A stretch of DNA of 13,966 nucleotides. It comes from a virus. Under the pieces are notes generated by a model. The model did no database searches and was not told where the DNA came from. It saw only the letters and a program-made list of their open reading frames with translations. Position numbers and translations under genes: made by a program. Below, one piece after another: positions 3,273 through 13,966 of this stretch (position 1 is its first letter; every line of letters starts with the position of its first letter). The stretch lies in the UHGV virus genome UHGV-0038964; one strand, given 5' to 3'.

Positions 3273-3662
3273 TTAAATCACCGGACAGTCATCAAATTCC
3301 CCACTTCGGGCATCATTGATGACATGAGTGATCACACCAAAAACAGCATTACTACCCGTGTAACCATCGTCATCTACTGGTAACGCCTCTTTCTTCCCGG
3401 TGCTTAAATCCTCCAGGTGCTGGCGCGGATACTTTCGGTATCTCTTTATGCGATATTCACCCTCCATAGCGCAGACAAGCAGCGAACCATCAACCGGAGT
3501 AAGCGAGGAATCAACCACCAGCAAAGCACCCTGCAATATTCCCTCACGGTGATGGCTGTCTGCCGCCCGCATGAAGTATGTCGCTGATGGATGCCTGATT
3601 AGTTGCTGATCAAGAGAAATTCTGCTTTCAACATAATCCGCCGCAGGAGAAGGGAAGCCCAT
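3273..3662 (-). CDS. humD: HumD, UmuD'-like polymerase V accessory subunit homologue (LexA/S24 peptidase fold), 129 aa
   Basis: ATG at 3660-3662 with GAGGTGA upstream; UmuD'-like sequence; gene order humD-phd-doc as in P1; LexA box immediately upstream. Confidence 0.8.
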   Translation of the reverse strand: MGFPSPAADYVESRISLDQQLIRHPSATYFMRAADSHHREGILQGALLVVDSSLTPVDGSLLVCAMEGEYRIKRYRKYPRQHLEDLSTGKKEALPVDDDGYTGSNAVFGVITHVINDARSGEFDDCPVI

Positions 3663-3681
3663 AGCGTTTTCACCTCAACAA

Positions 3682-3701
3682 TACTGTTTATTTATACAGT
3701 A
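3682..3701. promoter_or_regulatory. LexA (SOS) box TACTGTTTATTTATACAGTA
   Basis: CTGT at 3684-3687 and ACAG at 3696-3699 with an 8-nt AT-rich spacer; a perfect CTGT-N8-ACAG palindrome about 20 nt upstream of the humD ATG, in the divergent region shared with the + strand gene at 3837. Confidence 0.75.
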
Positions 3702-3836
3702 TACATTAAAGAGACACCTTTGGTGCAAACGCGTTATGTACATCAACCACCGCAGATGATTTTGTGCGCTTTGCTACTATTCATCACCAACGGATCAGCG
3801 TAACCTCGTTGCCAATCAGTTAATAAGGAATTAGCT

Positions 3837-4412
3837 ATGCCTAATCGCATTCCTCTCGATCCTGTATTGCCCAAAAATTTTGACTGCACTCCTAACGAGA
3901 AACGCTCTAAAGCTCAGCTGGACGCCTGGTGGGATCATCCGTATGGAGTTACACAATCTGACGGGAAAATTGTTGTTTTTTGTCTAAACGGTGGCGCGTG
4001 GGACCGTCCATCCATGCTTTGTTTGGCAGATAACTATGATGACGCCTGTGAACTTGCAGAAAGAAAGCAGGCAAGCTGGGTAAAAACACGGTCTAAACCG
4101 TCATTCATGTTTTCAATAGAACCGCCATTTATCCTAGCAAGGATGCCGCAGCGACCAGACCAGGAACAGCAAGAGATTGTTGCCGAATTTGATTCAAGGG
4201 AAGAAATGAACCTCTTCACGATGAAACAGGAACAAGAAGAGAATCTTGGAGTTTCACCATTTTTGGATCACAAGAGTATGAACCTCGACCTGCTTATCTG
4301 GTACAGCAATGAGCTTGAGTTATCGCTGTCCCGGCTTGAAAAAGAAAAAGCAGCTATCCAGGCACAACGTGAAGCTGTGTTGGCGCGGATTAAAGAAGTA
4401 CAGAACGGATGA
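3837..4412 (+). CDS. Hypothetical protein (191 aa) with a coiled-coil C-terminus; divergent from humD
   Basis: ATG at 3837 with AAGGAA 7 nt upstream; no overlapping competitor ORF; the C-terminal 60 aa are heptad-like (LELSLSRLEKEKAAIQAQREAVLARIKE). Function unknown. Confidence 0.55.
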   Translation: MPNRIPLDPVLPKNFDCTPNEKRSKAQLDAWWDHPYGVTQSDGKIVVFCLNGGAWDRPSMLCLADNYDDACELAERKQASWVKTRSKPSFMFSIEPPFILARMPQRPDQEQQEIVAEFDSREEMNLFTMKQEQEENLGVSPFLDHKSMNLDLLIWYSNELELSLSRLEKEKAAIQAQREAVLARIKEVQNG

Positions 4413-4418
4413 TTGCTG

Positions 4419-4682
4419 TTATTTTTTGATGGTATCGTCTTTTTGGTATACCGGATCGCTTCCCTTTGGCAACTGGAGGCTTAACTGCCGGTAGTGCCGT
4501 AGACGTTCCATGAAATAGGTGCGCAGGTTCTCTGGTTGCTCGCGGGCTACCTGTTCAGCTATGACAGGTATGTTCAATCGCTCTTTGTAGGCAACCCCCC
4601 TAGCAGCCAGGTCAACGTTAACTTTATTCCTTTCTTCCTGGCTTTTAGCTGCTATGTTCCATTCGTTCATATTAAATCCCAT
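4419..4682 (-). CDS. hot: Hot, homologue of DNA polymerase III theta subunit (HolE-like)
   Basis: The stretch [42 protein letters not shown] resembles E. coli theta ([42 protein letters not shown], recalled). Start is either the ATG at 4682 or the ATG at 4670. Confidence 0.7.
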
Positions 4683-5138
4683 CCAGAATAATTGAATAAC
4701 GGCTATTATTTAGTCGCCGCAATATCTTCAAAGTTTTTTTCTCACCCCATTGCTTTTTGCGCACAGCTTATCTGGCTTGCGGTGCGCCGAAATGTAAATT
4801 CGCCTTCAGAGTTATCCACAAAGTTATGCACTTGCAACGAGGCCATTTTCCTCATACTGTGTTTGCACACACAGGAAATGGATATTTTATTAATTGAATT
4901 TTATTAAATAATAATGATAAGGAGAAAATTTGAGATGTAATCATGACATTAATAGATAGGGCCTGCATTACAGGCCCCAACTACATCAAGGAATTCACAG
5001 TTCCCTGATTTTTATACCGAAAACATGTGCCGTAAGTTCACGTTAACGACTTTCTTTCACCGAATCCAACTATATAGAGGTTGGGTTTCTACGTCAACGT
5101 GAGAGCACACAGCTTTACATTTGACGAGGATTACCCTG

Positions 5139-5276: not shown

Positions 5277-5459
5277 TGTCGCGCTGAGATATTAATTCCC
5301 TTGCTGTTTAACCATTTTTTGTGTGTGCTGGTGAGCGTGTGAAGGCTCAATTTGTTGCCCACCAGTATTTACTATTTCTAAGCTCCACAGTGTCACTTCC
5401 GCACAAACAACTTAGCGCGGAATCAGTATTCGGCCCAAGATGTAAAAAGCCAACCTGCG

Positions 5460-5726
5460 TTATGGTTCGCATTTCCAAATAGTGTTCTGAACGCCCGTGC
5501 CGGGCGCGAGATGTGGATTAGCGTTCGCGCTATGCTGATATACGGCTTTAGACTTTCCATATTGCTGACAGGCTTTATCTGCGGTTTTTTGCAGGCTATC
5601 CAGCCCATACCAGCCATCAGACTGGATGCTTACCTTTTCACCGTCATTGTATTGCACCATTGCACACCCGGACATAGCCAGCATCGCACCGACAATAACG
5701 CTTTTCCATAAAACTCTATGCAACAT
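5460..5726 (-). CDS. Small lipoprotein (about 88 aa)
   Basis: Signal peptide MLHRVLWKSVIVGAMLAMSGC with a lipobox-like MSGC cysteine; the true start is probably the ATG at 5724-5726 (the track start at 5732 is a TTG). Confidence 0.55.
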   Translation of the reverse strand: MLHRVLWKSVIVGAMLAMSGCAMVQYNDGEKVSIQSDGWYGLDSLQKTADKACQQYGKSKAVYQHSANANPHLAPGTGVQNTIWKCEP

Positions 5727-5731
5727 ATACA

Positions 5732-5761
5732 AAAATCCCCTCTGTGAATTGAGGGGATTTT
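5732..5761 (-). terminator. Intrinsic terminator ending the upstream minus-strand operon
   Basis: Stem 5732-5742 pairs with 5751-5761 (AAAATCCCCTC / GAGGGGATTTT); on the - strand the stem runs into TTTTTGTAT. The same stem supplies the GAGGGG Shine-Dalgarno of the lipoprotein gene. Confidence 0.6.
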
Positions 5762-5795
5762 AGCATGGTGATCAGATATCAGCTTTATCAGGAAT

Positions 5796-6545
5796 TTAAT
5801 CAGCCTCCAGTGGCAATAACGCCTTAGCCATTTCATGAACCAACATGGCATCAATGACGCCTAGCGTATGGCCCGGCTTAATCTTTAATGCGGCCTCAAG
5901 ATAGCCTCTTTCCAGAGTGGTTTTTACGCTTTTCCTGGGCGCCTGTTGGGAACTATCCGGAAGATCCGGATGGTTCCCAGCCTCATAAGCTATCCGCAAC
6001 CAGTGCATGAATGTTTCCGCAGACACACAACCGCAGTCCACATCGATTTTCCCGCGTTGCTGTTCCAGCCATTGCCCAAAATCCAACCTGTAAGCCTTAC
6101 TTTCAAGTTCATCGCCATTGAACTCGACTTTCTGCGACGCTATGAGAGCTGATTCGTATTGTTCGCGAGTGACAACTGACTGGTATTCATCGCTATCAAG
6201 ATCACCAATTGGAAGCTCAATCTCACAACAAAAATTGCGCCCAAAGAACGTGTCTTTTTTGTGGTCTGAGCCAAAAGCAAAAGTCGCGCATGGCGCCATT
6301 AAATTGGCACTGAGCAGGCGACAATCGATCATACCATCAGGCCACCCGCCGCACTTAGGCAGCTCCTTCACTAACAAGTCGATAAGCTTCATTTTTTTAT
6401 CATCTTTGCTAGTTGCTAACGCCATTTTTGCAAGTCCAAATACTTCATCTGCCGTATATCCAGCACCGTGACCATACATTTCGATACGGGAAATAATCTC
6501 TGATATACGCTCTTTAGTGATTCTGGTCATTTCTTTTTGCGCCAT
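5796..6545 (-). CDS. Hypothetical protein (249 aa), last gene of the operator-gated operon
   Basis: ATG at 6543-6545; long ORF with no recognisable motif; followed by the terminator at 5732-5761. Confidence 0.5.
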   Translation of the reverse strand: MAQKEMTRITKERISEIISRIEMYGHGAGYTADEVFGLAKMALATSKDDKKMKLIDLLVKELPKCGGWPDGMIDCRLLSANLMAPCATFAFGSDHKKDTFFGRNFCCEIELPIGDLDSDEYQSVVTREQYESALIASQKVEFNGDELESKAYRLDFGQWLEQQRGKIDVDCGCVSAETFMHWLRIAYEAGNHPDLPDSSQQAPRKSVKTTLERGYLEAALKIKPGHTLGVIDAMLVHEMAKALLPLEAD

Positions 6546-6901
6546 TTCTTTTCACATTCCTTAGTCCATTTTTCAATGTTCATTTTGGCAATATCAGTCA
6601 TTCCATCGCCTAAGAAATACCTTTCCCGGTATGTCTTGCACTTAAACCACACTACAATAGCCACCAGCCAGAAAATAAAAGGCCAGACAGCAATACCAAC
6701 TACAGCCACGATAAAGTCCAATAGACACAAATGAAGCTCCCCTACTTCTGTTTCAGGCAATATCTTTAAAGAGTTAAACAGCAGACTGAACGAATGGTCG
6801 TATGCAGTAGCGCTATAAGACATACAATCCATATAATTAAAATCATAGCCTGCGGCTGCCGCCCATAATGGGCAGTCAAGAAAATGTTTGAATGTCATCA
6901 T
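6527..6901 (-). CDS. Hypothetical membrane protein (124 aa), Lys-rich C-terminus
   Basis: Tandem ATG ATG at 6896-6901; hydrophobic stretch LCLLDFIVAVVGIAVWPFIFWLVAIVVWF; 3' end overlaps the start of the 249-aa gene by 19 nt. Confidence 0.5.
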   Translation of the reverse strand: MMTFKHFLDCPLWAAAAGYDFNYMDCMSYSATAYDHSFSLLFNSLKILPETEVGELHLCLLDFIVAVVGIAVWPFIFWLVAIVVWFKCKTYRERYFLGDGMTDIAKMNIEKWTKECEKKWRKKK

Positions 6902-6967
6902 ATAAATTTAATCAGTTACACAGTGTGGCTGCTTCCCTGCCGTAACAGCAGGGTAATAAAGTTATAA

Positions 6968-7132
6968 TCAGTCTCCAGATAGAGATATAGCTAACGCACC
7001 AACGAGGAATAAGGTGCTACCAGCCAATGCACCGCAGCTCTCCGTTCCCCATTCAACGCCACCAGCCAAAGCCACAAAAAAACCACAAACACAGACAAAT
7101 ATAAACGTCGCCCAAAACTGTTTCTTTTTCAT
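6968..7132 (-). CDS. Unannotated small membrane protein (54 aa): MKKKQFWATFIFVCVCGFFVALAGGVEWGTESCGALAGSTLFLVGALAISLSGD
   Basis: Found by hand translation. Its ATG (7130-7132) overlaps the TAA stop of the upstream 97-aa gene (TAATG coupling); GGAG upstream; two hydrophobic segments. Confidence 0.45.
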   Translation of the reverse strand: MKKKQFWATFIFVCVCGFFVALAGGVEWGTESCGALAGSTLFLVGALAISLSGD

Positions 7133-7425
7133 TATGGGGTGCTCCAGTTATCTTCAATTACAATGCTCAACCTTTGTAGCCATTCTGCTAATTTCAGCAT
7201 TGCTTCTCTTTCGCTTAAACCACGCGGGAAATCATCAAGCGATATTGTTGGCTTGAAGTTCCCGAAATTATCCATTTCAACTGTCAGATTTTGCTCTAAC
7301 ACGGTATTCCTGACACGGCTATTGTGCCGAAGCAAATATACTGATCGTGATTCATTAGTTTTGTGGTCGAATTGATATTCGGTAAGTATCATCTGGCTTT
7401 TGCCATGACTATTACCTCTCCACAT
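7132..7425 (-). CDS. Hypothetical protein (about 97 aa)
   Basis: Track ORF 7132-7512 trimmed to the ATG at 7423-7425 (MWRGNSHGK...), which has a GAGG Shine-Dalgarno; the upstream part of the track ORF is instead taken by the 40-aa peptide in another frame. Confidence 0.45.
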   Translation of the reverse strand: MWRGNSHGKSQMILTEYQFDHKTNESRSVYLLRHNSRVRNTVLEQNLTVEMDNFGNFKPTISLDDFPRGLSEREAMLKLAEWLQRLSIVIEDNWSTP

Positions 7426-7432
7426 ACTTACC

Positions 7433-7555
7433 TCACTTAATAAAACAACTCCATGCGTAGTTGATGATTTTTTCCCACGCAATATAAATCTGCACTCCAG
7501 CAGTAAAACCAAAGCCTACAATTGCTGAAAAAATCAAAACATTTACTTTTGACAT
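7433..7555 (-). CDS. Unannotated small hydrophobic peptide (40 aa): MSKVNVLIFSAIVGFGFTAGVQIYIAWEKIINYAWSCFIK
   Basis: ATG at 7553-7555, TGA at 7433-7435; single transmembrane-like segment; ends 8 nt before the 97-aa gene start. The Shine-Dalgarno is weak. Confidence 0.35.
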   Translation of the reverse strand: MSKVNVLIFSAIVGFGFTAGVQIYIAWEKIINYAWSCFIK

Positions 7556-7603
7556 TATAAAATTTCTCTCGGTGTCGTAGGTGATAGCACCATAATTGAT
7601 AAT

Positions 7604-7936
7604 TTAGTGAGTTAGCAGCTTCATTTTTTTGATGATTTCCGCATGAGCATCATCGTTATCAACACTTAGCTCGTTTAATGCTTCTCGCACTACATCAACT
7701 TCTTCAGGCTGAAAGAAGTCGTCGCGGTAATCACCAAATAGAACCGAAACCAGCCTGGCACCAGCAACATCAAGATTAGCGCTAACAGGTGGCTCGATAT
7801 CTCGCCCACAATTCCAGGCTTTTTGGGCTTCTTCCAGCGTGTAAACATGAGCGCGATCGATATCAGAGCTGTAACCATTGCCGTTATGGCAATGGAATGA
7901 AGCGTTATTACCCACAGTTTCACGCGAGCACATCAT
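7604..7936 (-). CDS. Hypothetical acidic protein (about 110 aa)
   Basis: The track ORF begins at a TTG (7978) overlapping the upstream gene; the first ATG pair at 7931-7936 lies just after that gene's stop, so the start is placed there. Confidence 0.45.
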   Translation of the reverse strand: MMCSRETVGNNASFHCHNGNGYSSDIDRAHVYTLEEAQKAWNCGRDIEPPVSANLDVAGARLVSVLFGDYRDDFFQPEEVDVVREALNELSVDNDDAHAEIIKKMKLLTH

Positions 7937-8706: not shown

Positions 8707-8723
8707 ATATTTATTAGAGCAAT
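8707..8723 (-). promoter_or_regulatory. C1 operator-like 17-mer (minus-strand reading ATTGCTCTAATAAATAT) with promoter-like elements just downstream
   Basis: 16/17 match to the C1 consensus ATTGCTCTAATAAATTT. On the - strand it is followed by TTGATT, a 17-nt spacer and GAAAAT, a plausible -35/-10 pair for the operon at 5796-8624. Confidence 0.55.
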
Positions 8724-9166
8724 TATTGTTGATGGAGAAGCGCGTTTTCATACTCCCTGACCATTAACGTAAGCACGCCGTGCCTCCTGAAAACACGCGC
8801 CACTTCAATCTTATCTTCCAGCGCGAACGCGATTTTACTTAGACCAATTTTCTTAAGGAGATCAATCTTTGCTGGGCCGTCATTTCTGTCATCGGTGGCA
8901 GGACGCATAGATAGCAAAGGCTCAGCCCCGTTTGTTACGTACTTCCGCAGCCAGGCTCGTGTTTTATCCCTTGCGATCTCACAGCGCCCGGTTACAAACC
9001 AGACCGTGTAAACGTTAAATAACTGGCGCACAATATCAATAACTGGAGTTATGGGAGTATCAGTGTCACAGGCGAGATTAAACTCGTTCCAGTCCTTTGT
9101 TAATGCACCTTTACCTGGTGGCGGAAGCAAATGCAGTCTGTCTTCAGTTGCCTCTGATATTGTTCC
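8723..9166 (-). pseudogene. 3' portion of a HAD-superfamily (DxDGT) phosphatase gene split by the IS3-family element
   Basis: The reading frame is open from the insertion junction at 9166 to the stop at 8723. Joined to the opposite flank it reads ...PYIVIVDIDGTISEATEDR...VWFVTGR...DKTR...ATDDRNDG, the HAD motif order, resembling the phosphatase domain of polynucleotide kinase-phosphatase. Confidence 0.6.
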
Positions 9167-9184
9167 TGAATCGCCACAGATAAT

Positions 9185-10090
9185 CTAGACACTTCCGAGC
9201 CGCTGATAATATTGTTTTTCGTATTCAGTTGGTGGCATATGATCACTCGAACCATGCCGACGCTTACTGTTATAAAACATTTCGATGTAATCAAAAATAT
9301 CACCGCGAGCTTCTTCTCGCGTTCCGTAGATCTTTTTCTTTATCCGTTCACGTTTCAGTAACTGGAAAAAACTTTCTGCGACTGCGTTGTCATGACAGTT
9401 ACCGCGACGGCTCATACTGCCCTCCAGCCCGTGTGATTTCAGGAACGACTGCCACTCATAGCTTGTGTACTGACTGCCTTGATCAGAATGAACCAGCACC
9501 TGCTTTTGAGGATTACGTCGCCACACGGCCATCAGAAGTGCATTCAGGACAATATCCTTTGTCATCCGGGGCTGCATTGACCAGCCAATAACTTTGCGCG
9601 AGAACAGGTCAACAACCACAGCCAGATACAGCCAGCCTTCGTGAGTCCGGATGTAGGTGATGTCCGTTACCCAACGCTCATCCGGTGCTTCCGGGTTGAA
9701 CTGCCGCTGGAGCCTGTTGGGCGTCACGATGCTGGTTTCACCCTTACGTGCCCGTGGGCTACGGTACCCGACCTGAGCCCTTATCCCGGCACGCTTCATC
9801 AGTCGCCAGACACGGTTAACTCCGCACTGTTGTCCGGTATCCCGCAGGTCGAGGTGGATCTTGCGATAACCATAAACGCAACCCGACTCCAGCCAGAACT
9901 GCTTTATCAGCCCCGTCAGTCTCAGGTCAGCATGATGCCGCCGTGAATCCGGCTGCTGAAGCTAGGCGTAAAAACCACTCGGATGCACATCCAGCACCCG
10001 ACAAAGCAGTCGGACAGGCCAGCAATGGGTGTTGTCACGGATAAAGGCGTACCTCAGTCGGACAGCTTTGCGAAGTACGCCGCGGCTTTT
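9185..10090 (-). pseudogene. IS3-family transposase orfB (DDE catalytic domain), interrupted by an in-frame TAG
   Basis: The orfB frame is open from the slippery site (about 10090) and reads ...LLCRVLDVHPSGFYA, then TAG at 9962-9964, then LQQPDSRRHHADLRLTGLIKQFWLESGCVYGYRKIHLDLRD... continuing into the track ORF 9185-9799. Confidence 0.7.
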
Positions 10091-10332
10091 TTTAATATGT
10101 CCCGTTCGTCGGTAACCCGCTTCAGCTCTTTCTGGAGGCGTCGGATCTCAGCCTGAGCGTCTGACTGGACTTTATTGGTTGAGGAATCCGGGCCATATGC
10201 CTTTATCCAGGCATAAAGACTGTGGGTGGTGATACCGAGACGTGTTGCCACGCTGGAAACAGAATGGCCGCGATCAACAACCTGTTTTACCGCTTCAATT
10301 TTAAACTCTTCGGGATAACGCTTACCGCTCAT
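10054..10332 (-). CDS. IS3-family transposase orfA (helix-turn-helix / leucine-zipper part)
   Basis: ATG at 10330-10332 with GAGAGG upstream (the track start at 10338 is a GTG); ends ...DILKKAAAYFAKLSD. The ATATTAAAAAAAGCC slippery heptanucleotide at 10085-10099 marks the -1 frameshift into orfB. Confidence 0.8.
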   Translation of the reverse strand: MSGKRYPEEFKIEAVKQVVDRGHSVSSVATRLGITTHSLYAWIKAYGPDSSTNKVQSDAQAEIRRLQKELKRVTDERDILKKAAAYFAKLSD

Positions 10333-10392
10333 GGGCACCTCTCTTTAAGTCATCTTAAATGACTCTGAGGTGTCTGTTAAACCCGTGGCGAT

Positions 10393-10461
10393 TCATCCAT
10401 CAATATCAACTATGACGATATACGGACGTTCCTGGTGTGCGTGTTTATTGAAAATACTCAA
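10393..10461 (-). pseudogene. 5' portion of the same HAD phosphatase gene (LSIFNKHAHQERPYIVIVDIDG), cut off by the IS
   Basis: In frame with the 3' portion once the IS and one TCC copy are removed. The only candidate start is the TTG at 10459-10461, with GGAGGG 4 nt upstream; the IS terminal TGA now supplies the stop. Confidence 0.45.
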
Positions 10462-10480
10462 ATGCCCTCCTCATTGGACG

Positions 10481-10513
10481 AAAAAAATGCTGGTGGGCGC
10501 ACTCCACCAGCAT
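10481..10513 (-). terminator. Intrinsic terminator downstream of the 420-aa gene
   Basis: Stem ATGCTGGTGG (10487-10496), 7-nt loop, stem CCACCAGCAT (10504-10513); on the - strand the stem is followed by a run of seven T. Confidence 0.6.
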
Positions 10514-10533
10514 TAAAAGTGACACTGTAACTG

Positions 10534-11796
10534 TCAGCGAACGTAAATAGTGCCGCCGTTCTCTTTTTCCCATGCATCGCTACGTGCATAGCAAACATCG
10601 AGAAGTCTTCTTGCCGCTGTTTCCTCTAAACCCAATTCGACAACCAACTGCTCATGACGGCGGGTAACCACATCAAACAGGGTATGCAGCCCTTTAGCTG
10701 CCAGATCATCAATAAATTCCGGTTCGAACGGCAGCTCTGCATCTGCCAACATAACCTCTTGCGCCCACTCGACACGGCGGACCAGTTCCGGGCGGCGGCT
10801 TTCCATCTCTTTACAGATCAATTCATGGAAGAACTCTACCCAACCTTCCGGCTGGAACTCGCGGAAAATGGCCAGCGGCTGGAAGTTTGGCATCAACCAT
10901 TCGTTGATTCGGATATCAATGGCATAGCCCATGTCGCAGCAGAACTGATAAGCAAAGTCCAGCTTAGAAACGATATAAGGACGCTCGTTATTGAACTCTT
11001 TAGGCGATGAGATCCCATAAGCCAGGAGGCGCGGGAAGAAGGAGATTTGCCCTAACGTCGGATGAAGTTTGCTTGCAGGGAAACGGCGCTCAGTAATGCC
11101 ATACATTTCCTTCTTGAGCGTCGCAAATTTGGCATTCTCATTAACCAGCGCGGTAACCTCTGCTTTTTTATTAGCAAATGCCACGCGCGCTTCGCTTGCA
11201 TCTTTAATAGTTTTTTTGAGCTGTTGGTTAAGATCGGCGACCTGCTTACGCAGTTCCTGTCGCTCGCTTTTAGCTTTGTTATAGCGTTTCTCAAGGTTAA
11301 AAGGATCAAGTTTCATGATCTCTTTATATTGAGATTTTAGCGTTGAAATCTGTGAGTTCCGCAGTTCAACCATCGCGGTCATTTCATTGAGTTTTGTTTC
11401 CAGCTCAATGCTTATACGTTCGGCATTATCAGCACGCTGGTTGGCGTCATGCGTCGCATCGTCGATCGCGTCCTGTTGCTGGCGTTTCAAATGTTCAATT
11501 TGTAGCTGAAGCTCTTCAATTTCTTTACCCTTCAGACCGAGATCCAACTGCATATTTTCAGCTGCATCTACCAGGGAGTTATGGCTATCAGCTTCTGCGT
11601 TATAAACATCAATAAGCTGTGCGTGAAGCATCTCCGCTGACTGAACCGCATTATCAAAAAAACGCGCTGTGAGGTCATCACAACTAACGCGGCGTTGCGC
11701 GGCCCGGATGTTCTGGATAATGGCTGGGATACCGGCATTCAGGACGTCAGGGATAGATACATTTTCGATTGATTGGTTTTGTGCTGAAGTGCTCAT
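10534..11796 (-). CDS. Hypothetical protein (420 aa): N-terminal coiled coil of about 200 aa plus a C-terminal globular domain
   Basis: Long clean ORF with its ATG at 11794-11796. Residues about 80-230 are heptad-rich and charged (EIEELQLQIEHLKRQQQ..., ERQELRKQVADLNQQLKK); the C-terminal half is aromatic and Cys-containing. No recognisable catalytic motif. Confidence 0.6.
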   Translation of the reverse strand: MSTSAQNQSIENVSIPDVLNAGIPAIIQNIRAAQRRVSCDDLTARFFDNAVQSAEMLHAQLIDVYNAEADSHNSLVDAAENMQLDLGLKGKEIEELQLQIEHLKRQQQDAIDDATHDANQRADNAERISIELETKLNEMTAMVELRNSQISTLKSQYKEIMKLDPFNLEKRYNKAKSERQELRKQVADLNQQLKKTIKDASEARVAFANKKAEVTALVNENAKFATLKKEMYGITERRFPASKLHPTLGQISFFPRLLAYGISSPKEFNNERPYIVSKLDFAYQFCCDMGYAIDIRINEWLMPNFQPLAIFREFQPEGWVEFFHELICKEMESRRPELVRRVEWAQEVMLADAELPFEPEFIDDLAAKGLHTLFDVVTRRHEQLVVELGLEETAARRLLDVCYARSDAWEKENGGTIYVR

Positions 11797-11797
11797 T

Positions 11798-12016
11798 TCA
11801 AAGTTCCGTATTAGCTTGTGCTTCGGTCATTTTTCCTAAGTATGAAGGTGGAAGGACTACGCAATTTGTATCCAGTCCCTCACCTATGGCAGCCTGTAAA
11901 ATTCTGGCTAAGGTGAGTCTCTTGTTGCGATACCTGGTGATTACATGCCTGATACCGCCGGTCGGCGTAACAAAGGCGATCAGCCAGTAGTGATATTTCC
12001 GTCGGAATGGCCACAT
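11798..12016 (-). CDS. Hypothetical small protein (72 aa), first gene after the paired C1-operator-like sites
   Basis: ATG at 12014-12016 with AAGGTG upstream; its stop lies 1 nt from the 420-aa start, indicating translational coupling. Confidence 0.45.
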   Translation of the reverse strand: MWPFRRKYHYWLIAFVTPTGGIRHVITRYRNKRLTLARILQAAIGEGLDTNCVVLPPSYLGKMTEAQANTEL

Positions 12017-12030
12017 AGCGCACCTTGTAG

Positions 12031-12096
12031 ATTGCTCTAATAAAAAACGTGATGAGTGTACATCACGTTTTAAAAATATGAAATTATTAGAGCAAT
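12031..12096. promoter_or_regulatory. Two inverted C1 operator-like 17-mers flanking a 10-bp-stem hairpin
   Basis: ATTGCTCTAATAAAAAA at 12031-12047 (+ orientation); ATTGCTCTAATAATTT as the reverse complement of 12081-12096; between them AAACGTGATG-agtgta-CATCACGTTT (12045-12070), which on the - strand is followed by TTTTTT. Confidence 0.55.
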
Positions 12097-12097
12097 A

Positions 12098-12799
12098 TTA
12101 TTCTGATTCTCGCTCAAAAAATGAGCTGATAAGGGGAAGCCAATCCTCTGACACTTCGCGAGGTCGCGGTTTGCCGTGGAAAAAGATTATTCGGCAGTCT
12201 TTTGGTAATGCCCCATTCCCCCTGGAGTAACGCGCGCTCGCATATTTTGAACCAGGTTCCACAACATCGGCCTTGTAACTTACAAACCATCCTGGATACA
12301 GATCCTGAAATGCTGGTGTATCATCGCCCATAACCTTTCGTAAGAACCCCTGGTCACCCCAGCACTCAGTAGTGACACAACGAGAAATCCAACCTTCCGG
12401 ATCTTGCCAGAATGAACTCCAGATATGCGCTTTTACACTATTTGGTATCCACAGGGCACCGCTACCACGATATTGTGGATGGTAAAAATCCCTAAGCATG
12501 GTGAAGCTGGTTGGTGGATTCTCAAGGATTGGGCGTATATCACCGGCAATAACTGTGTCCAAATCCAGATAGAACAGATCATCTGTTATATCCGGTCGGA
12601 ACAACTCGATTTTCGTCCACCAGCCACGGCACTTTTGCCACTGGTTGATCAATGGGACAACTTTGACGCCAGGTACATGTAAACGCTTCAGGTCTGTCAG
12701 GCAAATAATTTCATAGCCTTTTGGCAGTTGATTAACCAGCCACTGCACATCGGAAGCGTTATAGTCACCACCAGAGCGAAGAACTAAAGCAATCTTCAT
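12098..12799 (-). CDS. Hypothetical protein (233 aa), tentatively a nucleotide-sugar (DxD) transferase-like protein
   Basis: ATG at 12797-12799 overlaps the ppp stop (ATGA coupling). The segment [13 protein letters not shown] resembles a DxD glycosyltransferase motif; the assignment is weak. Confidence 0.5.
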
Positions 12800-13488
12800 G
12801 CTGCACCATCACCTTTCACTTTCATCAATGTCAGGTTTCCGCAAAATACGGCACCAGTGTCGATATAATGCTGATTCCAGAATGTCTTCGGGCTTTTCAC
12901 CGGAGTGTGACCAAAGATAAAACGATCTGCGCCCGAAATTTCGCCACCAATATCATCCATCGAATCACTGATACGCTCGCGCGCCCAGACAACGTTGAAA
13001 AGCGGCACCTCCTTACCGAATTGATATTCATTATCCGGATAGTCGGCATGGGCTATAACGATAGTTTCTTGCCCGGTGTTCAACTCAATGATATAGGGCA
13101 GTCGTCTTACCAACTCCACCAGCGCCCTGGCTAATATTTCCTGATCAGCGTCCAGCATGAAGAACCATTGACCGCCATTCATTAGCCAATTATTCACGTT
13201 GCCATCAGGACTTAACGCATCAATCATCAGCCGCTCATGGTTGCCCATAACCGCTCTGAACCATGGCATCTGCAATAGCTCCAAGCATTTAACATTTTCG
13301 GTGCCGCGATCGATAAGGTCGCCGACCGATATCAGTAAATCCTGCGCAGGGTCAAAATCCACACGATGGAGTTCGGACATCAGTCTGGTGTAGCAACCAT
13401 GCAGATCACCAACAACCCAGATATTCCTGTATTTGGTACCGTCGATACGGTGATAAATTGTTGGTGCCATCATGTATTCTTCAGCCAT
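12796..13488 (-). CDS. ppp: Ser/Thr protein phosphatase of the lambda-phosphatase (PPP/calcineurin-like metallophosphatase) family
   Basis: All three signature motifs are present: GDLHGC, GDLIDRG and GNHE. The start may instead be the ATG at 13471-13473 (MMAPTIY...), which overlaps the upstream stop (ATGA). Confidence 0.85.
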
Positions 13489-13814
13489 TCTTTAAGAGTC
13501 ATCTGCGGAATACCTCCCATTTTCCCGCATGAAACAACGTCAATCTGTTCACGCGCAGACTGGAATAACAAAGGCAGGTGACTTAGATTTTTTGGCGTGC
13601 CGCCGGAATGAACGCGTGGTTCTTGCGTAGCGTCAACGCCCACCAGGGCTACATGTTTGAATCCGATATGGAAAGCCAGGTTCAGAGCACCATATGCACT
13701 ATTGCCGCTGGCAATTTCATTCTCATCTTCGCAAAGGCCGAAATGTGCGGACCAGCGCCACGCCCACCACTCGGGAGAATTCGTATTTTTTGGCTCCGTG
13801 CCGCGCTCAGCCAC
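13470..13814 (-). CDS. Hypothetical protein (about 114 aa), start uncertain
   Basis: The frame opens after a stop at 13884-13886; the first candidate start is a GTG at 13812-13814 with a poor Shine-Dalgarno. An overlapping ORF in another frame (13682-13894) begins with ATG, so a frameshift or wrong start is possible. Confidence 0.35.
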
Positions 13815-13966
13815 ACGACGGAAGCACAGAACGCCGTCTCTGACCTCACGTTCTTTAACATCGGGTAACCTTTTTTCTGCCCTTCAGCCTTCATTTTCCC
13901 GGCGGTTGCTTTTGAACGTTTCCCTCTGAAGTGGTTTACTGAATTTGGCCACCTGAACAGAGGTGA

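Follow-up and report, generated by a model that had tools for sequence, protein, structure and literature searches.

We asked which genetic unit lies at positions 10534-12016 of a 13,966-nt viral stretch of DNA (UHGV-0038964; hereafter the window), and what its two products do. A sequence-only reading had described a pair of genes behind operator-like sites, encoding a 72-aa protein and a 420-aa coiled-coil protein, and had proposed an accessory or defence-type module. We found, with near certainty, that the pair is the known pmgR-pmgS operon of P1/P7-type phage-plasmids, an early unit under C1 control; it is already catalogued and annotated, and there is no new element here. Megablast of positions 10400-12150 returned 19 phage records at 98.2-99.5% identity, all of them P1, P7, SJ46, RCS47 and their relatives, and the whole unit was 98.5-99.5% identical to P1, P7 and SJ46. 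The sequence-only reading had named a clear match to a conserved P1 morphogenetic or replication protein as the result that would speak against it, and both genes do match P1 genes labelled putative morphogenetic: PmgR is identical to P1 PmgR at 72 of 72 residues (100%), and PmgS is 99.5% identical to the proteins of P1 and P7 and 100% identical to that of SJ46. The two proteins matched phrog_3177 (E 4e-47) and phrog_1660 (E 1e-195), respectively, and the genes named pmgR and pmgS in the P1 record are shtA and shtB in P7. Positions 10396 to 13867 were colinear with P1, and the order pmgQ, Op86a/b, pmgR, pmgS, terminator, pap is shared with P1 (82.1-84.3 kb) and P7. The unit agrees with that of P1 in gene order, operators, hairpin and terminator, without any difference of substance; outside it, an IS3-family element (9167-10395) splits the downstream gene pap about 90 bp past the operon terminator.

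Both genes are on the minus strand and start with ATG. The first, pmgR (P7 shtA; 11798..12016), encodes a protein of 72 aa, 8.3 kDa and pI 10.1; the second, pmgS (P7 shtB; 10534..11796), encodes a protein of 420 aa, 48.3 kDa and pI 5.2, so that the two products carry opposite charges. The single base 11797 separates the pmgR stop codon (TGA, ending at 11798) from the pmgS ATG (11796), in agreement with the 1-nt gap reported from the sequence. A Shine-Dalgarno motif, AAGGTG, was read before pmgR and only a weak one before pmgS, as would be expected if pmgS translation depended on that of pmgR, and the two cistrons are probably translationally coupled. We then searched the window with the 17-bp asymmetric C1 operator consensus ATTGCTCTAATAAATTT, allowing up to 3 mismatches, and obtained 4 matches against a chance expectation of 0.05, a number reached in 0 of 200 shuffles. 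The paired sites noticed just upstream of the genes were confirmed by this search and by the P1 annotation. OpmgRa (formerly Op86a; ATTGCTCTAATAATTTC, 12080..12096, minus strand, 2 mismatches) is annotated in P1 (AF234172), and OpmgRb (formerly Op86b; ATTGCTCTAATAAAAAA, 12031..12047, plus strand, 3 mismatches), annotated in the P1 and P7 records, lies 33 bp downstream of it in inverted orientation. The P1 GenBank record says of these sites 'controls expression of pmgR and pmgS'. P1 annotation coordinates were moved to the window with a constant offset of 4399, which placed the predicted sigma-70 promoter PpmgR on the minus strand, with its -35 (TTGCTC, 12090-12095) inside OpmgRa and its -10 (TAAAAC) at 12067-12072. 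Given this position of the -35, the unit should be silent in the prophage and switched on early once the prophage is induced or a cell is infected.

Between the two operators we identified a GC-poor hairpin with a perfect 11-bp stem, followed by a T-run (12044..12071, minus strand), an element absent from the sequence-only description. RNA folding gave a free energy of -26.9 kcal/mol and a z-score of -10.3 for the hairpin with the operator arms. The minus-strand T-run directly after the stem suggests that it is likely the terminator of the upstream pmgQ/ppp operon. Since the -10 of PpmgR lies within the upstream arm, transcripts from this promoter would not carry the whole hairpin. Generic promoter and terminator scans called neither PpmgR nor the 12044-12071 hairpin, and an Rfam search found no RNA family in the window. 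The terminator scan did confirm that the unit has a terminator of its own (10476..10514, minus strand), with a stem running from 10514 to 10486 (11 pairs, 6 GC) followed by TTTTT.

The operon is a core module of the P1-like lineage, not a variable cargo cassette. Both genes are among the 21 genes described as 'extremely conserved' in 77 P1-like phage-plasmids, for which pmgS has also served as a PCR marker (PMC9603915), and we found the operon in 683 plasmid records of PLSDB, all at 95% identity or more. The pair occurs in essentially all P1-like elements, which is not the distribution of an accessory gene. What stood of the accessory or defence-type assignment is that plaques still form without pmgS (PMC9024508 Table S3, PMC10695390); the remainder fell away, with the genes being core and showing no defence match. 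A PmgR homologue was encoded directly upstream of the PmgS homologue in all eight P1-like lineages examined, which include metagenomic elements of 86-98 kb and phage D6, down to about 20% PmgS identity.

Published P1 genetics separate the two genes. In-frame deletion of pmgR left less than 1e2 PFU/mL, with heads and tails made but unjoined (Gonzales et al. 2022, PMC9024508). The deletion was rescued in trans by pmgR alone; complete virions experimentally need pmgR, and the phenotype resembles that of the pacA packaging control and is also like that of the adaptor mutant pmgC (PMC9024508). According to the deletion primers (PMC9024508), the last 7 pmgR codons and the pmgS start are kept in delta-pmgR, and pmgS should thus still be made. 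Deletion of pmgS, by contrast, left normal plating and normal antirestriction on EcoA, EcoB and EcoK hosts (PMC9024508). A genome-wide dCas12a CRISPRi screen, in which the roadblock is polar on downstream genes, gave efficiencies of plating of 0.94 for pmgR and 1.2 for pmgS and scored both as non-essential; its authors listed pmgR among five known essential genes that were 'missed', the others being mat, repL, 25 and 26 (PMC10695390). Judged by deletions, particle assembly is abolished by loss of pmgR and not of pmgS, but the CRISPRi result on pmgR disagrees, so that the two published data sets, one with a lethal deletion and the other with a non-essential score, are in conflict.

Neither PmgR nor PmgS was detected in the virion proteome by LC-MS/MS (PMC9024508). 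In the 2026 P1 cryo-EM study the connector consists of Prt, PmgC and gp7, the set of proteins built includes neither PmgR nor PmgS, and a full-text count found no mention of pmgR (PMC12810830). No late promoter is annotated upstream of pmgR in P1, whereas the nearby LPhot, LPpmgL and LP26 are, and no -22 box was found within 1 mismatch at 12017-12400. Small low-copy proteins can escape both mass spectrometry and cryo-EM. Taken together, the early promoter, the lack of a late one, the absence from virions, the viability of delta-pmgS and the early-region location of the homologues described below make a non-structural early function of PmgR and PmgS well supported.

We modelled PmgS with AF2 on an alignment of 62 sequences (pLDDT 88.4), which replaced a model on 11 sequences (pLDDT 71.7). 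The predicted N-terminus is a short helix. It is followed by two long helices in residues 41-232 (11101..11676, minus strand), identified by AF2, the alignment, charge analysis and a heptad scan; they account for the heptad-rich N-terminal half that had been noticed in the sequence. The first of them (41-160) is acidic, with a net charge of -13, and the second (165-232) is basic, an arrangement seen throughout the family, and they are joined by a conserved L-D/E-P turn whose proline, P165, is shared by at least 90% of the 62 family members. This acidic-then-basic pattern across the family suggests that residues 41-232 probably pack as an antiparallel coiled-coil hairpin. Residues 233-350 (10747..11100, minus strand) form a conserved beta/alpha middle domain with 18 aromatic residues and 3 Cys, in line with the aromatic and Cys-containing domain described earlier. 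This domain was unmatched in every library searched, and Pfam searches with the isolated middle domains of 10 relatives returned nothing. Residues 351-412 (10561..10746, minus strand) are predicted to form a C-terminal (HhH)2 domain of the RAD51-NTD / RNAP alpha-CTD / NusA-AR type: by AF2 and fold comparison it has five helices with two helix-hairpin-helix motifs, as in the (HhH)2 fold; NusA AR and alpha-CTD are among its neighbours in fold. The earlier statement that the 420-aa protein has no enzymatic motif and no established function was borne out, with no Pfam family at threshold for PmgS or for PmgR. Searched by sequence in Pfam, NCBIfam, PADLOC and PDB, the two proteins returned coiled-coil noise at most, the PmgR family profile had no match in PDB, and Foldseek against BFVD found nothing with E < 0.39.

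Word-indexed protein searches found PmgS only in P1-like elements, apart from one relative at 27% identity that matches Pfam HHH_5; a further search of this kind added a single new relative. A profile search of 1.84 billion cluster representatives recovered 120 clusters at E<=1e-3, 83 of them at E<=1e-10; most are 360-470 aa long, and the match extends over most or all of the protein. Against PDB sequences, the family profile matched the RAD51 NTD (E 8.6e-8), RadA, DMC1 and alpha-CTD, and Pfam identified HHH_5 in 18 and RNA_pol_A_CTD in 13 of the 62 relatives. The canonical hairpin KG[IMLF]GxK[TS]A, which contains the Gly-hydrophobic-Gly signature of (HhH)2 domains, is kept in most of these 62, where the domain is near-neutral. 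In P1-clade PmgS, however, the second HhH hairpin is degenerate, with ELGLEETAARR replacing KGIGxKTA (ELGLEE / NYDMTP), and charge analysis showed the domain to be acidic (net -8). The degenerate hairpin and the acidity together make NusA-AR-type protein binding a live alternative, and by its sequence the P1-clade domain appears more like the protein-binding NusA acidic repeats than like a DNA binder.

The likeness to known proteins is confined to single parts of PmgS. RAD51, RadA, DMC1 and the RAD51 paralogues carry (HhH)2 at the N-terminus, whereas PmgS carries it at the C-terminus on a coiled coil, has no ATPase core and, in the P1 clade, departs from the RAD51 type in the degenerate second hairpin and acidity just described. 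The likeness to RNAP alpha-CTD and NusA AR1/AR2 likewise stops at this domain, the rest of PmgS resembling neither alpha nor NusA. SMC, Rad50, MukB/JetC and LmuB have a long coiled coil in common with PmgS, and the weak profile matches lie there alone; unlike the SMC/Rad50-type ATPases, PmgS has no Walker A/B head, hinge or zinc hook. An assignment to these ATPases was rejected, the NCBIfam matches reaching 15-19 bits against cut-offs of 567-1000 over residues ~60-230, with no P-loop domain in Pfam. A Kistimonas match from the scan of genome contigs was likewise a coiled-coil false lead.

Using tblastn, we also found PmgS homologues outside the P1-like phages. In the leftward early region of Aeromonas phage phiARM81mr the order is CI ... 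ExoVIII-RecT-integrase-small ORF-PmgS-like-ORF-Dam methyltransferase-exonuclease ... int, and in Pseudomonas phage 15b it is RecT-Sipho_Gp157-PmgS-like. A Vibrio phage carries YfdP-YfdQ-PmgS-like-methyltransferase a few kb from int, and a chromosomal prophage carries a CI-type repressor ... YqaJ exonuclease ... PmgS-like ... Dam ... int, in which the YqaJ exonuclease is fused to a T7 Gp5.9-like domain. In another contig with a homologue, an integrase lies 0.9 kb downstream. No PmgR homologue was found at these loci, and the small ORFs upstream of the PmgS homologues in L006 and L009 are not PmgR-like. The neighbours in P1-like elements are DarB, the VRR-NUC-like PmgM, phosphatases and a PNK-type phosphatase. 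All-against-all BLAST of the neighbours revealed no conserved downstream partner of PmgS, and at none of the loci examined was a homologue located among structural genes. λ Gam and P22 Abc occupy the slot beside the recombinase in their own phages, and T7 gp5.9 is a RecBCD inhibitor. Like such early recombination accessories (Sipho_Gp157, λ Gam, P22 Abc), the PmgS homologue stands beside RecT and an exonuclease in Pseudomonas phage 15b, Aeromonas phiARM81mr and one chromosomal prophage, and PmgS shares with them early expression and dispensability. The analogy is one of position only, PmgS being unrelated to Gam, Abc and Gp157 in both sequence and fold. Gene neighbourhood is circumstantial, and many unrelated genes lie in the early regions of temperate phages.

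Based on the above results, we propose, with a probability of roughly 0.55, that the operon makes two non-virion proteins, of which PmgS acts on phage DNA or DNA-bound machinery and PmgR serves as its partner. Transcription arriving from the upstream operon would end at the hairpin between the operators, and the separate terminator would close the unit. Neither product would become part of the virion. PmgS would be an elongated, acidic protein in which an antiparallel coiled-coil stalk bears the beta/alpha and RAD51-NTD-type (HhH)2 domains at one end, and it may act in early replication, recombination or concatemer handling, a DNA-transaction role that we infer from its domains and context. 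Like most phage recombination accessories, it would not be needed in the laboratory. PmgR, small and strongly basic, would be a partner restricted to this lineage and synthesised immediately ahead of PmgS. Without PmgR, heads would stay unfilled or incomplete and would not be joined to tails, consistent with a block no later than DNA packaging or head completion. The resemblance of delta-pmgR to the pacA control likewise argues for an arrest no later than the filling or completion of the head, and against the loss of a virion part. The partnership itself is suggested by the pairing of the two genes across the lineage and by the opposite charges of their products. A point against it is that pmgR alone complements, and PmgR may be a PmgS-independent assembly chaperone.

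Public records favour a different explanation, in which the two are true morphogenetic proteins acting in head morphogenesis (PHROG), sheath structure or contraction (P7 shtA/shtB) or as a prohead scaffold (D6). Besides these labels, it draws on the unjoined heads and tails of delta-pmgR, as in the adaptor mutant pmgC, on the frequent use of coiled-coil proteins as scaffolds or tape measures, and on weak matches to Phage_scaffold (E 0.77) and a tape-measure PHROG (E 0.066). We consider it unlikely. The labels trace to position-based guesses ('putative'), expression is from a C1-repressed early promoter and no late one, neither protein was seen in virions by mass spectrometry or built by cryo-EM, and the homologues elsewhere sit in recombination or early regions far from structural genes. 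In addition, a phage that plates normally after deletion of pmgS cannot have PmgS as an essential scaffold or sheath factor. A morphogenetic role is thus essentially excluded for PmgS; for PmgR it is possible, as a non-virion chaperone. The lethality of delta-pmgR would also follow if the pair worked as poison and antidote, in which case PmgS made alone would bring phage development to a halt, for instance by sequestering DNA or a factor of packaging or replication, and PmgR would restrain or time it and be essential only when pmgS is present. This would accommodate a lethal in-frame pmgR deletion from which pmgS should still be made, a harmless pmgS deletion, an efficiency of plating of 0.94 under a polar roadblock on pmgR, and a small basic gene kept immediately upstream of a large acidic one across the lineage. 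Yet mat, repL, 25 and 26 likewise escaped the CRISPRi screen, so that a leaky roadblock explains its pmgR result equally simply; neither protein matches a toxin or antitoxin family in Pfam, NCBIfam or PADLOC, and PmgS homologues exist without PmgR in other phages. We regard such an arrangement as rather improbable. Its sharper form, in which PmgR is not morphogenetic at all but a restrainer or timer of PmgS, and PmgS, as a coiled-coil protein that binds DNA or machinery, would prevent genome packaging if unchecked, is a long shot. If true, it would explain why in-frame deletion of pmgR is lethal while a polar knockdown of the whole operon and the deletion of pmgS are harmless, and it would reveal a new phage-internal checkpoint, or a nuclease- or defence-countering factor with a safety catch, in all P1-like phage-plasmids.

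PmgS could instead serve early in host takeover or counter-defence. As an acidic module, either DNA-mimic-like or similar to alpha-CTD/NusA-AR, it would bind a defence sensor, RNA polymerase/NusA or a RecBCD-type host nuclease in place of DNA. Early expression and strict conservation of a protein dispensable in laboratory strains would suit such a role, as would the very acidic long helix (net -13), the acidic HhH domain of the P1 clade, the fold neighbours NusA AR and alpha-CTD, which are protein-interaction modules, the recombinase-adjacent slot elsewhere, as for λ Gam and P22 Abc, and the T7 Gp5.9-like fusion on the YqaJ exonuclease in one prophage's early region. This support is circumstantial, however; delta-pmgS plates normally on hosts restricting by EcoA, EcoB and EcoK, no anti-defence family was matched, and the HhH domain is canonical and near-neutral in most family members. 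We therefore give host takeover only a small chance. Far less probable, and already contradicted, is the defence module of the sequence-only reading, borne by the prophage to protect the lysogen. A two-gene cassette with its own promoter and terminator does look the part, and PADLOC gave weak matches to LmuB and JetC (E 1e-4 to 0.1). But the PADLOC, SMC and Rad50 matches span the coiled coil only, far below family cut-offs, with none for PmgR, and PmgS has no ATPase or nuclease domain. Moreover, these are core genes and not variable ones, and the phage needs pmgR for its own virion production. The promoter is C1-repressed in the lysogen, and we infer that the operon would be silent there, whereas a defence gene carried by a prophage would need to be expressed.

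The RAD51-type (HhH)2 domain and the early recombination regions that house the homologues outside P1 render the public pmgS labels doubtful. 'Head morphogenesis', 'sheath contraction', 'prohead scaffolding' and 'RNA polymerase L' are all unsupported and probably wrong. Correct annotation of the core genes of P1 is of some use, given that P1 serves as a standard tool and that resistance genes occur in its relatives. The domain assignment of PmgS, the size and context of its family and the lineage-restricted partnership with PmgR are new here. With at least 120 clusters at 50% identity, PmgS represents a large unannotated family, whose conserved middle domain matches nothing. For pmgR, the conflicting data sets pose the choice between a true assembly gene and a conditional one, and the analysis offers a new and testable explanation for the discrepancy between the two published screens. 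Newly observed as well is a hydrophobic C-terminal tail on some PmgR homologues.

The PmgS N-terminus carries a motif, KRxxGDDL (PmgS residues 33-47; window 11656-11700), whose presence is associated with that of the pmgR gene. We found it at seven of the eight loci carrying pmgR, whereas only one of the ten loci lacking pmgR had it. The motif may be a contact site for PmgR, but the association is confounded by shared ancestry. In three divergent P1-like lineages (phage D6, L017 4603-4902; L011 7577-7870; L013 7599-7892), the PmgR homologues end at the C-terminus in a hydrophobic tail of about 22 residues that resembles a transmembrane segment; the 72-aa P1-type PmgR carries no such tail. The presence of this tail in three divergent homologues, but not in the P1-type protein, hints that the ancestral PmgR was membrane-anchored.

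Published phenotypes of pmgR disagree: the gene was essential by in-frame deletion (PMC9024508), but non-essential by polar knockdown in the genome-wide CRISPRi screen, with an EOP of 0.94 (PMC10695390). For pmgN, the disagreement between the same two studies runs in the opposite direction. The annotations of pmgS are mutually inconsistent among public records (MH160767, AF503408 and MF356679) and the family entry PHROG 1660. In MH160767, an 'RNA-directed RNA polymerase L' spans the pmgR-pmgS region and the pmgS CDS itself is a 'hypothetical protein'; other labels are 'sheath contraction', 'putative prohead scaffolding protein' and 'PmgS-like head morphogenesis'. We looked for data supporting the polymerase, sheath, scaffolding or head morphogenesis labels of pmgS and found none. 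Large pieces of PmgS, 95-99% identical, lie inside three database proteins, P0002 (480 aa), P0016 (463 aa) and P0005 (531 aa), which are named 'DNA cytosine methyltransferase' or 'metallophosphoesterase' and look like chimeric ORFs that arose when P1-like plasmids were rearranged or acquired frameshifts.

The P1 pmgM homologues (L013 6907-7389, L006 3967-4620, L017 3897-4391 and P1 pmgM itself) group with proteins having a weak match to the VRR-NUC nuclease domain, and probably at least one further 'putative morphogenetic' label in this region of P1 belongs to a DNA-metabolism gene. A chromosomal prophage with a PmgS homologue (L021) also encodes a 571-aa protein (3330-5045) with a YqaJ exonuclease domain and a T7 Gp5.9-like domain; in T7, gp5.9 inhibits RecBCD.

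Downstream of the operon, pap is interrupted by a 1229-bp IS3-family insertion sequence (window 9167-10395) with 99.9% identity to Klebsiella plasmid copies, leaving remnants at 8723-9130 (the PNKP-phosphatase part) and 10396-10461. Because bases 2997-2999 of the P7 region (L002) are present on both flanks of the insert, a 3-bp target duplication is suggested. At the end of pap, a minus-strand C1-operator-like site with one mismatch (8707-8723) aligns with P7 Op(hea) and P1 Op88, and another, with three mismatches, lies on the plus strand at 381-397. The stretch at 5334-7775, whose counterpart is absent from the P1 and P7 regions compared, carries minus-strand ORFs of 249, 124, 126 and 124 aa, none with a Pfam match. 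It is the equivalent of 'highly variable region H' (pmgT-humD), which has been described for P1-like phage-plasmids.
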